From the NCBI RefSeq assembly GCF_004010195.1, contig NC_057758.1:1046983-1110982 (forward strand): 64,000 bases of DNA. The letters run 5' to 3'. Position numbers and translations under genes: made by a program. The stretch is from Chiloscyllium plagiosum. Its lineage: Eukaryota. The notes beneath the pieces are model-generated. The model ran no database searches. It was not told the origin of the DNA and saw only the letters and a list, made by a program, of their open reading frames with translations. This document shows positions 1,365 to 55,430 of this stretch, in pieces; within the stretch, counting starts at the first letter, position 1, and every line of letters begins with the position of its first letter.

Positions 1365-2219
1365 AGATTGTATTAATTTAGTAATTGAAGTAAAAGGGCT
1401 TTTTGAACTATATCCTCCAATTGCTCTCTGAATTTAGTCTGGGTCACAGCATAAGTTAACGGTATTTGTGCAGCAACTGAGGAGTTCAAGCATTAAGCCT
1501 AATTCATGTAGATAATTATCTAAATATGCAGATTTATAGCCAATGACAGACATTGCATTCCATATAGAATACACCATAAACACGAACCAGAACAGAACAA
1601 ACATTTCGCGAGACAACTAATAGTAATTTGACTGATTTCTTTCGATTTTGCATCTCTGAGTCTGTGGAGCGTTCTGCACTGCTGGAAACCGGGTATCTTG
1701 TGTGAGCTTTGCAGGTCAAGGCGATGTATCTGGTAATGAAGTCATTGATCAGGAGAAGCAGGTAAATGGCATTTCAGGATTGAGAACGTAGTCAAGGAAT
1801 TCAATTGATGCCCAAACTGTCGCTTATACCACAATCTAGTTTATGTCGAAATCACAAGGGAAATTTCTGAACCAATATGCATGCGCTAGTCTGAAATATT
1901 AGTTCCTGGAACAATTTATGCCACTATTTTCAGTGAAGTACTTAACTTTCAGCTTCTGGCAAGAAATAGCTACAAATCGATCAAAAGTGAAAGTGATGGT
2001 GAACCAGACGGAACACACAATGACAGCAAGTATTAAGGTAGAGTGAAAATTGCAGATAAGGAAATTCAAAAGAATGAACAAAAAGGCTATCTCAATAATC
2101 AATGGTATATGTCTCAGAATTCGATCAAGAATGATGTCCAATAAGTCTGCGAAAGACATGGCCGTAAGATAGCATGCAACACATTTGAAGAGGCAGGGCT
2201 ACAATCGTCACTACATTAA
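1365..2219 (-). pseudogene. GPR139/GPR142-like GPCR pseudogene (copy A), main exon
   Basis: Acceptor cttttattttattcctcgtag then (V)NVVTIVAL. Motifs AMSFADLL..RHIP, CSVWFTITFTFDRFVAISCQKLK, DSEMQNRKKSV and ELGLMLELLSCCTNT are split across frames (ORFs 1899-2159, 1534-1719, 1434-1616). Homologous to the ORF at 23242-24141. Confidence 0.9.
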
Positions 2220-2554
2220 CTACGAGGAATAAAATAAAAGAGGGCGGCTATAGTTCAGTTGAACTAGAGTTGCCAGTTTGTTAGTGCACGTTTTGAAATT
2301 CTCCCACATGATTTTAAATGTAGCAATTCTTGAAATATTATTTCCATAAATTGAGAAGAGATAGGAGTGGGCACAAACCATTTGGCTATTCAAACACAGA
2401 TGAAAATTTATGAGGTACATAGATGCTTCAATTTTCCTCACGATCCTTTGTCCACTGAACCTTTCCTTGTCCACTGAACCTTTGATTTTCCATTGTGATC
2501 AGGAATCAATCCATCTCAGCCGTAGGTAGACCTGTCGAGAGAGTGGTGCTAGTA

Positions 2555-2615
2555 GGCAGCATTCGAGGAGCAGGAGGATTGCCATTTAGGGTATTTGCCT
2601 TCATCAGGAACGAGG
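2555..2615 (-). mobile_element. Penelope-like terminal repeat remnant (decayed hammerhead motif)
   Basis: Minus strand reads CTGATGAaggcaaataccctaaatggc..tcctgctcctcgaatgctgcct, the same motif as at 20370 and 58581. Confidence 0.55.
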
Positions 2616-3089
2616 TAAATATGCACAAATCTCTTCCCTCCCTTTCCGTTGCATCTTTTTGTGAATCCCATCTAGCACAGATGAATTATTTATACTCAGG
2701 TTTTCCAAAATGTCCAGCAGATACTCCGTTATATCATCAAACTATTCGAGTTTACATCTTCCTATTCCCTTGTGAATGCTGAAGCAAGGTTTCCATTAAT
2801 GGACATTACCTATCTACTCCAAATCCAGGCATACGTTCCCTCAAATATCCCTGATCGGCTCTACCATCCCTCTAGCTATCCACTTGTTCCTCATAAAGAC
2901 GTATAATGGCTTGGCATTTTTCCTTAATCCTACCAGCCAAGGCTTTTTCATGCCCCAGTCTACCTCACCTAAGACCAGACTTCATTTCCTTCCTGCCTTA
3001 CGTGTCACCCCGTAGAAACGACATTTTAATTCAATAAGGAAACCAAAACTGATTAAATTACTCCATATATGATCTCACCTGCACCTTGT

Positions 3090-3520
3090 TGTTATGAAGG
3101 TGTAGAGTTGCAAAACTAGCAAGGACTGACAAAGAAATAGTGTTCTGAACAAACTAAGAAATTATCACTTGAGAAACAAATAGCTGCAGCTCAGTTATCT
3201 GGAAACAAACACAAGTTCAAATTCAGCCAATCAGTTTAAATTATGCTCCAAGATACCAAAATCCAATCAAATTTGATTTTGTTATTTTGATAATATTAAA
3301 ACAAATGAAATGATCCGATGGTTTGGGATATAAAGGCGGACATTTTGAACAGTTAGTAAAAGAACTGCCAAGGACATGCGCAAACACATACTGCTACTTG
3401 AAGAGCACACTGCAAGGACCTGTCTATGAGAAGTTTGCGCAACAGAACATCGAATCCGATTTACAGGAAAATCTTCAGAGGCAGATACAAAGAGATGATT
3501 CTATAGCTGACAAGAGCTCT
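3090..3520 (+). mobile_element. Truncated Ty3/gypsy LTR (5' part)
   Basis: Starts tgttatgaag. Shares agccaatcagtttaaattatgc and atgaaatgatccgatg..gacattttgaacag blocks with the LTRs at 32769 and ~40080. Confidence 0.75.
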
Positions 3521-3789
3521 TAAGACTGACTGAGACTCGGACAGTGAGCTCTGAAACTAACAGATGATGAGACAGTGAGCTCTGTGACTGAGAGTGAGAC
3601 TGGGACAGCGATGAATGTGACTGAACGTGACACTGTGCAAGTGAATTCTGGGACTGAGAGAGGCTGAAACAATGACCTCACGGACTGTTTCAGTGAGGAA
3701 CAATGGTTTTCACTCCTTCCACAATCCCGTGTGACTTTGAAACGAATCTCCTCTGAGTTTGTGTCCCAGACCTCATTATTCAAGTCTCT

Positions 3790-53385: not shown

Positions 53386-53389
53386 AGCC

Positions 53390-54480
53390 ATCTCTAGTCC
53401 AACCTGTTGCTATCTAGAATTCCTGGTCTCAGTCATCGCCAGTCCCAGCTAATGTCAGTCCCACAGCTCACTGTCCAAGTCTCACTCGCAGTCACAGATC
53501 TCACCTTCCAGGATGCCATCAGAGCCAGGAGCTCACTGTCTCTTTCTCACACTCAGTCCTAAGTCTCAGGATACTGATCTGTATCTGCGCCACTCTTCAC
53601 TGTCTCTGTCAGAGTGAATCCCAGAGGTCAGTATCACAGTCTCCTTCTCCATCCCAGTGCACATTCTCCCAGTCCTTTTTAGTCCGGAGTTCGCAGTCTC
53701 AGTCTCTGTCAGTCCCAATGCAATCTCTGCCAGACACTTTAAGTTGCAGTACTCACTTCTCAGTCTTTTGTCAGCCTCAGAGCTCATTATAGTAATGTCT
53801 GTTCGTCGCAGAATTCACAGCCCCAAGACTTGCTGTTTAAAATGACATTTTCCACGACAATGCCAATCGCAGAGATGTCTGGTCCTGTCTGTCGCATTCT
53901 CAGAGCTCAGTCTCCCAGTCTGTCGCTGAGTCTCAGTGCTCACTGTCCCAATCTCTGCAAGTCTTCGAAGTCATTCTTCCTGTAGCGTGGCGCTGGAGAA
54001 ATGATAGCAGGTCCGGTAACAACTGAGAAGCAAGAGATTCCGAGTTTCTGGAATGATCTTTTTCCTGCAATGAAGAAGGGTACTTCCCGAAACATAAAAC
54101 TGTCTATGTCCTCAGATGCTGCCTGACCTGCTATACTTTCTCCAGCGCCACCTTTTATCAACTCTGACTCTCCAGCATCTGCGGTACTGACTTTCTCCAT
54201 GAGCTCGCAGTTCCAGTTTTCGCCAGTTTCAGAGCTCTGCGTCCCAGACCTCCCTGACAGAGTTCAGTGTCACGGCCTCACTTTCGAACCCTGTGCCCAT
54301 CACTTAAAGCCCCAATGCGCCATCTCCCAGTCTTTATCAGAGTCAGTGCTGACTTTTCAAGCCCCTGTCTTTCCATGTGCCCACACTCCAAGTCTCTGTC
54401 AGTCCCAGATCTCAATAATAATCCCAGTATTCCCCTTCCGAGTCTTGATCAGTCCCATAATCATGCATTCCTACATGTCA
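53390..54480. repeat. 31/33-bp minisatellite block with a Penelope terminal fragment (~53985-54200)
   Basis: cagtcccacagctcactgtccaagtctcac units; tgaagaagggtacttcccgaaac..gatgctgcctgacctgc. Confidence 0.85.
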
Positions 54481-54484
54481 GTAA

Positions 54485-54850
54485 CAGACCGTTCAACCAA
54501 TCTAGTCTATGCCAACTCAATATCCGAAACAGAACTAATTCCATTCACCCGTATTTGATTGGTATCCATCTAAACCTTTCCTATTCATGTACTATCGCGT
54601 GTATGTCATTTTTATAGTTGTTGCCGGCTCTACCACTTCTTCCGGCAGCTAATTAATTACGTCAGATCATTTGCGTGATAAAGGTGCCCCTCAAGTCCCT
54701 TTTATTTCTTTACCCTCTTAACTTAAAACAATTCTCTGTAGTTTTGGAATCCCGACTTGGAGAAAAGACCTTGGGTTTTCACATAATCTACACCGTTCGT
54801 CAATTTGTAAACCTTTGTAAGATCACAACTCATATTTCTACTTGCTGAAC
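54485..54850 (-). mobile_element. Old CR1 3' fragment (paralogous to 10050-10490)
   Basis: Same position relative to minisatellite and GPCR as in module B; colinear sequence. Confidence 0.75.
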
Positions 54851-55039
54851 AGAGAGATGACTCACCACATTGTGTGTAGCATTGACACCGCAGACAGATC
54901 ACTCTGGTCCCACTGCATCTGCTTATTGCACGTCGATAATCATTTGCTGACACCAAACCTCTCTTTCTGACTCCATTTGATAACGAAGCGTACTGATCCT
55001 GAATCGGACCTGATTTCATTTTCTCTTAAAAAATGTTTT

Positions 55040-55430
55040 TCATTGTTTCCTCAATTTTAGTAAGAAAGTTATCGGATATTTGAACACGTCCTTCATCTGA
55101 TCCCTGAACTTCCTCAATGCGACGGCATAAATACAAATATTTGTACAACAACGTGTGAGCTGACAGATGTATCCAATTTCCCGCACATAATAATGTAGAT
55201 AGATAGACTTCTGTCCCAATAACCTCGCCCGGTTCCATATTGAATAGAACATAAAGACAGCCCATGACAATAAACAGTTAGCCGACAGTAGAAGCAGTAA
55301 AACTATGGATTTTCTTCGACTCACCATTTTTGTGTCTGTGACATTGTTTCCCATGCTGAAAGTCTGGAGTCTCCTGCGGGCTCTGCTGGCCATTAGGATA
55401 TGTCTAACACAGAAAGCACTGATCAATAAA
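55040..55430 (-). pseudogene. GPR139/GPR142-like GPCR fragment (copy D), TM5 end to stop only
   Basis: VRHILMASRARRRL..SRRKSIVLLLLLSAN..YVREIGYICQLTRCCTNICIYAVALRKFRDQMKDVFKYP. Closest to copy B; 5' part absent. Confidence 0.9.

Follow-up and report, generated by a model that had tools for sequence, protein, structure and literature searches.

The question raised by this locus is what kind of receptor family is represented by four related copies of a G-protein-coupled receptor (GPCR) of class A, named A, B, C, and D here, in 64,000 nucleotides of Chiloscyllium plagiosum DNA (NCBI RefSeq assembly GCF_004010195.1, contig NC_057758.1, positions 1,046,983 to 1,110,982 of the forward strand). This whole stretch is referred to as the window, and positions are counted from its first nucleotide. 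We read the window as part of a tandem gene cluster, now in decay, that belongs to a receptor repertoire of chondrichthyans. Judged from sequence, the role of this repertoire may be to sense outside chemicals in cells of sensory or epithelial type, by a family apart from the olfactory receptors (ORs), TAAR, V1R, and V2R; we prefer this reading at slightly less than even confidence. PMC numbers below stand for excerpts of the papers concerned.

The window was searched by tblastn with the open frame of copy C (24162-23245, minus strand) and with a profile, and four class A (7tm_1) paralogues were found, all on the minus strand. Their profile scores were far above chance (138+64+40 bits for A, 226+69+59 for B, 473 for C, and 160 for D). 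The original prediction had placed four same-strand copies within 55 kb, one with an open main exon, two frameshifted, and one truncated. The number, strand, and state of the copies agree with this (C is open, A and B are frameshifted, and D covers transmembrane helix (TM) 5 to helix 8 only), but the span includes an assembly gap of 500 N at 25224-25723, and the distance from C to D is therefore not a true length.

Relatives of copy C are numerous. At 90% identity they formed 762 clusters, by which a small family is excluded; the best 120 of these 762 include 119 named shark proteins, at 43-61% identity, from Heterodontus francisci (55), Heptranchias perlo (26), Rhincodon (11), Stegostoma (11), and others with fewer (counted by hand). 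The 55 members from H. francisci are spread over more than 30 scaffolds. Among representatives at 50% identity, 431 matches were obtained, 97 of them below 1e-30. When the taxa of 21 family representatives were looked up, 20 were chondrichthyan (sharks, rays, and chimaera) and one was without a name; the non-shark genera are represented by Leucoraja, Hypanus, Rhinoraja, Narcine, and Callorhinchus, among others. Tandem arrays elsewhere are suggested by accessions that follow one another almost without a break on one scaffold. The tandem birth-and-death family that had been proposed is thus recovered as a large chondrichthyan family with tandem arrays and pseudogenes. All these counts are lower bounds on diversity; they are not counts of working genes, because they take in models without a true first exon, and a recognizable exon-1 motif is present in only 84 of 120 database proteins.

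Two observations on the database models are added. Models P0015, P0017, P0021, P0048, and P0090 carry pieces resembling long interspersed nuclear elements (LINEs) that match reverse-transcriptase fragments of the window, which suggests either copies without a true exon 1, like A and C, or patched gene models. The N-termini of P0006, P0034, and P0041 consist of tandem repeats of 13-14 residues with an N-glycosylation sequon in each, the number of repeats varying by member.

Nearly all of the 119 named shark proteins bear the RefSeq label 'probable G-protein coupled receptor 139'. No description of a chondrichthyan expansion was found in the literature searched, subscription journals being outside its scope; 'GPR' is not mentioned in the excerpts checked of PMC8455134, PMC11979771, and PMC10620051, and GPR139 is absent from the parts searched of the supplements of PMC7677710, PMC10529500 (one small file), and PMC13188829. 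The expansion is apparently undescribed, its genes being public under a misleading label.

Evidence on what such a family does comes from the distribution of its diversity, compared in four sets: 118 close paralogues of copy C (P0002 and P0003 excluded; P0002 repeats its own C-terminal part), 44 divergent paralogues (21 named and 23 placed by tree), 76 of the 120 listed members of clade A, and 21 members of clade C, the last two being low-copy relatives described below. The 21 pocket positions were picked from general knowledge of class A receptors before any values were seen, and the statistic ignores the tree. Across the 44 divergent paralogues the pocket has a diversity of 0.75; the remaining 47 positions in those helix halves reach 0.61 (p=0.0045), and the cytoplasmic halves 0.34. 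Clade C has the reverse order (0.04 in the pocket vs 0.20, p=0.0003); the difference in clade A is not significant (0.26 vs 0.36, p=0.19). Diversity of outer and inner loops is 0.47/0.27 in the close paralogues and 0.69/0.50 in the other set of the family, and 0.50/0.54 and 0.20/0.37 in the orthologue sets.

Within the 118 closest paralogues only the outer loops and the rim vary; in the subfamily of the window, Y/F3.33, H5x43, and W6.48 make up a deep aromatic pocket that is fixed, and variation is seen at the outer rim. The strong divergence of extracellular segments noticed at the outset is likewise found between the window copies, whose outer loops are their least similar parts: A and C are identical at 11/56 positions of the extracellular loops vs 75/145 of the helices, and B and C at 17/57 vs 82/155. 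Ratios of nonsynonymous to synonymous substitution rates (dN/dS) are 0.22-0.46 in all six pairs of window copies, dS being near saturation except between B and D. The pattern reads as the signature of a repertoire for many ligands with one transducer, and is not proof of a 'sensory' role. The receptor repertoire originally predicted is matched to this extent by the ligand-diversifying signal in the pocket.

The preferred reading, detection of outside chemicals, would work as follows. Duplication yields copies, most of which die by stops, frame changes, and deletions, as observed in the window; surviving copies would retain the cytoplasmic face and alter the pocket or its rim, in line with the pattern observed; each member would bind a different ligand, and all would feed a common G-protein pathway. 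The ligands may be peptides or peptide-like molecules sharing an aromatic core, because the ancestry lies near receptors for aromatic amino acids and amidated aromatic peptides (PMC8557429) and the aromatic pocket is fixed. The family has some features of a chemoreceptor family: it is large and clustered, contains pseudogenes, and combines a variable pocket with a conserved scaffold (44 divergent paralogues). OR, TAAR, V1R/ORA, and V2R families likewise evolve by birth and death in clusters and have a variable pocket, and MRGPR and formyl-peptide receptor (FPR) clusters turn over fast.

This last example leads to an explanation that we consider doubtful, although it forecasts an identical pattern of birth-and-death and pocket diversity: immune or somatosensory surveillance, in which leukocytes, mast-like cells, or sensory ganglia would sense microbial, parasite, or damage peptides, like mammalian MRGPR or formyl-peptide receptors. 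The MAS1 family is reportedly confined to bony vertebrates (PMC8455134), so this role would be vacant in sharks; against it, the shark family has no sequence link to chemokine receptors, FPR, or MRGPR, and the best solved match of its profile is GPR139, at 79 bits vs at most 58 for every other.

Several points weigh against detection of outside chemicals. Pocket diversity implies many ligands, not the origin of these ligands; the list of pocket positions stems from general class A knowledge and was used with a tree-blind statistic; the 44 paralogues were selected as divergent and may include dead genes; pocket diversity in the 118 close paralogues does not exceed that around it (0.21 vs 0.28, p=0.33); and no pair of window copies has a dN/dS above 1. 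At least three of the four window copies are dead and exon-1 motifs are missing from many database proteins (present in the 84 of 120 given above), and the working repertoire may therefore be much smaller than the counts. From the literature, a catshark top-50 list for brain and olfactory epithelium is without GPCRs in the excerpt of PMC11979771, a weak point since single receptors are rare transcripts, and the Lymnaea authors chose receptors of a related expansion for differences between reproductive organs (PMC11589774).

The state of the individual copies bears on how much of the family is functional. Copy A (2219-1356, minus strand) consists of exon 2 only, from the end of TM1 to helix 8, and is a pseudogene with at least three frame changes, four stops, and a 9-codon deletion in TM4; its phase-1 AG acceptor is still intact. 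Copy B is also a pseudogene. Its exon 2 (11570-10680, minus strand) contains two frame changes and two stops, and is preceded by an intron of 4.2 kb (11571..15773, minus strand; GT...AG, phase 1, directly before N1.50) and by exon 1 (15941-15774, minus strand; ATG, N-terminus, and first half of TM1), recognized at E 1e-9 with an exon-1 profile made from the first exons of 84 of 120 relatives. This exon ends in a GT donor, yet has one frame change and one stop inside. No further exon 1 was found when the window was searched with the protein profile and with DNA, and exon 1 of copy A appears to be lost. The phase-1 acceptor just before N1.50 is common to A, B, and C. The two-exon layout claimed for all copies is therefore seen in full in B only, as far as the acceptor in A and C, and not at all in D.

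Copy D (55425-55040, minus strand) is a paralogue of the B type from which the part between TM5 and helix 8, both included, is left. It is 70% identical to B in protein (dS 0.61, dN/dS 0.32) and pairs with B at 99% support in the tree, and the homology between B and D reaches into both flanks; the upstream flank of D (55420..56163, minus strand) is homologous to that of B at 16531-17768. At the junction, 55420-55425, the equivalents of positions 11055 and 16531 of the B region are fused. A deletion of about 5.5 kb has taken exon 1, the intron, and TM1-TM4 from copy D, together with the proximal upstream region. Copy D as a separate short gene was considered and rejected: its upstream ATG frame passes through flank sequence that the deletion brought next to it, and gave no Pfam match. 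Copies A, B, and D are dead.

Copy C has an open exon 2 (24140-23242, minus strand), with an AG acceptor at 24141, a stop at 23242, and no stops within 302 codons. It matches Pfam 7tm_1, and its predicted fold is a class A helical bundle with a predicted local distance difference test score (pLDDT) of 90.4, the model being without the half of TM1 encoded by exon 1. The assembly gap lies 1083 bases upstream of its acceptor and may hide exon 1. Over the 118 closest paralogues, from ten shark species, 147 of 299 alignment columns are at least 90% conserved; copy C deviates at 27 of these 147, including C107F and H5x43Q, where its 118 closest relatives deviate at a median of 4 and a maximum of 23, and its terminal branch is long (0.62-0.66 in the trees). 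In 2000 runs of a neutral-substitution simulation, the frame was open in 15%, 2.7%, and 0.5% at protein divergences of 10%, 20%, and 30%; copy C differs by 40% from its nearest database relative with its frame still open, and most of this divergence thus accrued under some constraint. Two states are possible for copy C: a functional, fast-evolving member whose exon 1 is in the gap, or a pseudogene of recent origin. Four of the 16 listed sequencing runs (kind unstated, one study) contain 0.72-0.78 of its sampled words, and no RNA run was present among the listed runs containing such words; neither result has a bearing on expression.

The surroundings of the copies are repetitive. A degenerate tandem array with a 31-bp period (3500..10000; autocorrelation peak 0.435 at period 31) stretches between copies B and A, from about 0.7 kb on the 3' side of B to about 1.3 kb 5' of the acceptor of A; its counterpart 3' of copy D lies at 53420..54300. 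The same satellite occurs within 60320-64000, nearly all arrays of the window being in one orientation, and no 31-bp array was found in the 7 kb upstream of copy B. As the array is 3' of both B and D, the idea that it forms a constant upstream element of every gene was rejected. The segment 60321..64000 is a recent duplicate of 3693-6285, with 95-96% identity and a 1.1-kb insertion, and runs past the end of the window; should the duplication extend further, it would predict a B-like copy about 4-5 kb past that end.

These features enter into a further explanation, which we regard as improbable, namely that the expansion is mostly a by-product of repeat-driven segmental duplication, with few working members and decay of most copies. 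It would account for the death of at least three of the four window copies and for the occurrence, within one 64-kb window, of a duplication at 95-96% identity, of arrays with a 31-bp period, and of a deletion of 5.5 kb, and several database models contain reverse-transcriptase-like pieces, suggesting patched models. Neutral decay is difficult to reconcile with the 147 of 299 columns conserved at 90% or more over 118 paralogues of ten shark species, with dN/dS of 0.22-0.46 between window copies, with deep subfamilies that contain shark and ray members alike, and with an open copy C at 40% divergence, given that simulated neutral copies kept their frame in just 2.7% of runs at 20%.

With regard to ancestry, the top match among solved receptors was human GPR139 for copy C (E 2e-9), for the family profile (79 bits vs at most 58 for all others), and also for two low-copy relatives; in an annelid control, GPR139 was not among the best 60 of 116 matches. 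Read from the alignment, about a quarter of the residues are identical between copy C and human GPR139; human and zebrafish GPR139 are 70% identical (PMC7318219). Orthology to GPR139 or GPR142 was rejected, given this quarter identity, the hundreds of paralogues, and the replaced polar residues of the agonist site. The initial description of the copies as GPR139/142-like is accordingly kept in that GPR139 is the nearest characterized receptor, and abandoned in that the lineage is apart from GPR139/142. A Foldseek search with copy C gave generic class A matches, GPR139 at rank 23, and has no ranking value.

The nearest relatives are three low-copy lineages, clades A, B, and C, at 28-33% identity. 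Clade A comprises sharks (which have their own orthologues), sturgeon, teleosts, coelacanth, amphibians, turtles, and squamates, birds and mammals being absent from the best 120 of 145 matches; clade B is from anchovy; clade C is from amphibians and sturgeon (P0252, P0404-P0423) and probably represents the shark family's low-copy counterpart. As side observations, clade A (P0241, P0286, P0287, P0321, P0344) is a separate gene labeled 'probable GPR139' with S/C for W6.48, and two of its models bear TMEM183A-isoform names; the clade C receptor has an almost invariant pocket and N instead of D2.50.

Trees were built without true GPR139 or GPR142 sequences. A quick tree of 84 rows placed the expansion in one group (support of 88 in the Shimodaira-Hasegawa-like approximate likelihood ratio test, SH-aLRT) beside clade C (85). 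A careful tree of 26 rows united the family and clade C at 84/89, clade C being unresolved among the basal family branches, and set the vertebrate receptors apart as their own clade from four invertebrate sequences at 100/100; the alternative grouping of the family with clades A and B was not rejected in the approximately unbiased test (p-AU 0.063). With moderate support, the family would descend from one lineage of the GPR139/GPR142/'GPR210' group, a lineage whose copy number has stayed low in amphibians and sturgeon. Rinne et al. 2019 (PMC6504862) put orphan receptors of coelacanth, gar, and teleosts next to GPR139/142, as 'GPR210A/B' and a third subtype without a name; the sets of that survey are small, and sharks are mentioned 0 times in the excerpted text. 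In the excerpted supplement of a whale shark study (PMC8455134), the GPR142-labeled orthogroup holds 70 proteins in 35 taxa, about two each, and therefore contains no large expansion.

The motifs of the family are those of class A, with 7tm_1, the helical bundle, N1.50, D2.50, C3.25, D/ERx, P5.50, W6.48, and Y7.53 all present. Two motifs had been singled out as non-canonical. The DRF-type end of TM3 occurs in A and C; B has DRL, and D is without TM3. TM7 does read CCTNxxxY in place of NPxxY, but this is not family-specific: the proline is absent in human GPR139 as well (NFFLY), and N5.58 and the lack of proline at 7.50 are common to the family, GPR139, and clades A and C. The missing proline does not mark the family since GPR139 and the low-copy relatives share the trait, and the TM7 motif was rejected as a family mark, the loss being common to the wider GPR139 group.

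GPR139 and GPR142 are class A orphans with L-Trp and L-Phe as activators. The agonist site of GPR139 combines deep hydrophobic F3x33, H5x43, and W6x48 with polar E3x32, R6x51, and N7x38 (PMC7318219). In the close subfamily the deep part is largely present (Y/F in 97% at 3.33, H in 94% at 5x43, and W in 100% at 6.48), copy C having N, Q, and W at 3x33, 5x43, and 6x48; the polar E3x32, R6x51, and N7x38 are L, L/F, and F in the window subfamily, which, unlike GPR139, has also lost P6.50. As the polar site is replaced, binding of free Trp or Phe in the manner of GPR139 is unlikely, and the suggestion of an amino-acid sensor of the GPR139 kind is not supported.

Near-fixation of the TM3 pocket residues in the close subfamily would also suit a diversified system of internal or reproductive peptide receptors in gonad, sperm, oviducal gland, or neuroendocrine cells. 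GPR139 responds to ACTH/MSH and its protostome relatives to amidated aromatic peptides (PMC8557429, PMC7318219), and some catshark v2r genes are enriched in testis (PMC11979771). Receptors for hormones tend to have few copies and to be conserved, like clades A and C, and hundreds of copies with frequent loss would be a poor fit; this explanation strikes us as quite improbable.

Elsewhere, the examined parts of the window consist of LINE fragments, other interspersed repeats, the 31-bp satellite, and the recent duplication. Fragments of LINE reverse transcriptase or endonuclease (Pfam RVT_1, Exo_endo_phos) lie at 46327-47184 (plus strand), 20648-22164 (minus strand), and 42328-42876 (plus strand). 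Two open stretches on the minus strand, 49829-50242 (138 codons) and 50823-51281 (153 codons), have no Pfam match and are possibly remains of mobile elements. A repeat without identity, with ATTGG words, occurs in three same-orientation copies (3211-3355, 32879-33500, and 40165-40753; 73-77%); the first of these sits between the acceptor of copy A and the 31-bp satellite.

Shark genome papers describe a paucity of GPCRs (PMC8455134) and a small olfactory repertoire (PMC11979771), the latter amounting in catshark to 2 OR, 6 OR-like, and 32 v2r genes (PMC11979771). At least 55 distinct members in one shark, under the label 'probable GPR139', contradict the picture of GPCR paucity whatever the ligand. 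If detection of outside chemicals is the true role, the family would explain how a wide chemical space is covered by animals whose ORs, TAARs, and V1Rs are so few, and the view of sharks as poor in such GPCRs would be overturned. The low-copy relatives in amphibians and sturgeon offer a simple route to the ancestral ligand. The window itself adds little: three of its copies are dead, one is doubtful, and the ways in which copies die are cleanly recorded.

Compared with known systems, the shark family and GPR139 are alike in W3.41, N5.58, the lack of the 7.50 proline, aromatic 3.33, H5x43, and W6.48; the GPR139 gene has two exons (PMC7318219), a layout seen in full here in copy B only. OR, TAAR, V1R/ORA, and V2R differ from the shark family, which has no sequence membership in any of them and a coding intron that splits TM1. 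Among 78 family members examined with Pfam, 7tm_1 was matched by 78, Srx weakly by 9, and nothing else; the own profiles of OR, TAAR, V1R, V2R, and Srw gave no match in these 78 (Srw 0/78 at E 0.01). Srw-bearing invertebrate clusters do occur among the look-alikes of copy C. The protostome sister group of GPR139/142 comprises FMRFamide/MIP-type receptors (PMC8557429), FMRFamide-receptor-like genes number about 450 in Lymnaea (PMC11589774), and the srw chemoreceptors of nematodes split off peptide-type rhodopsin receptors (PMC3963977). We tentatively suggest, with doubt still outweighing confidence, that cartilaginous fishes possess one more large family of chemoreceptors, exceeding their V2R set in size and co-opted from the GPR139/GPR210 peptide-receptor lineage, in parallel to the nematode srw and gastropod expansions. 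The srw and gastropod FMRFamide-receptor-like genes are also large lineage-specific expansions from peptide-type receptors, and represent separate protostome events.

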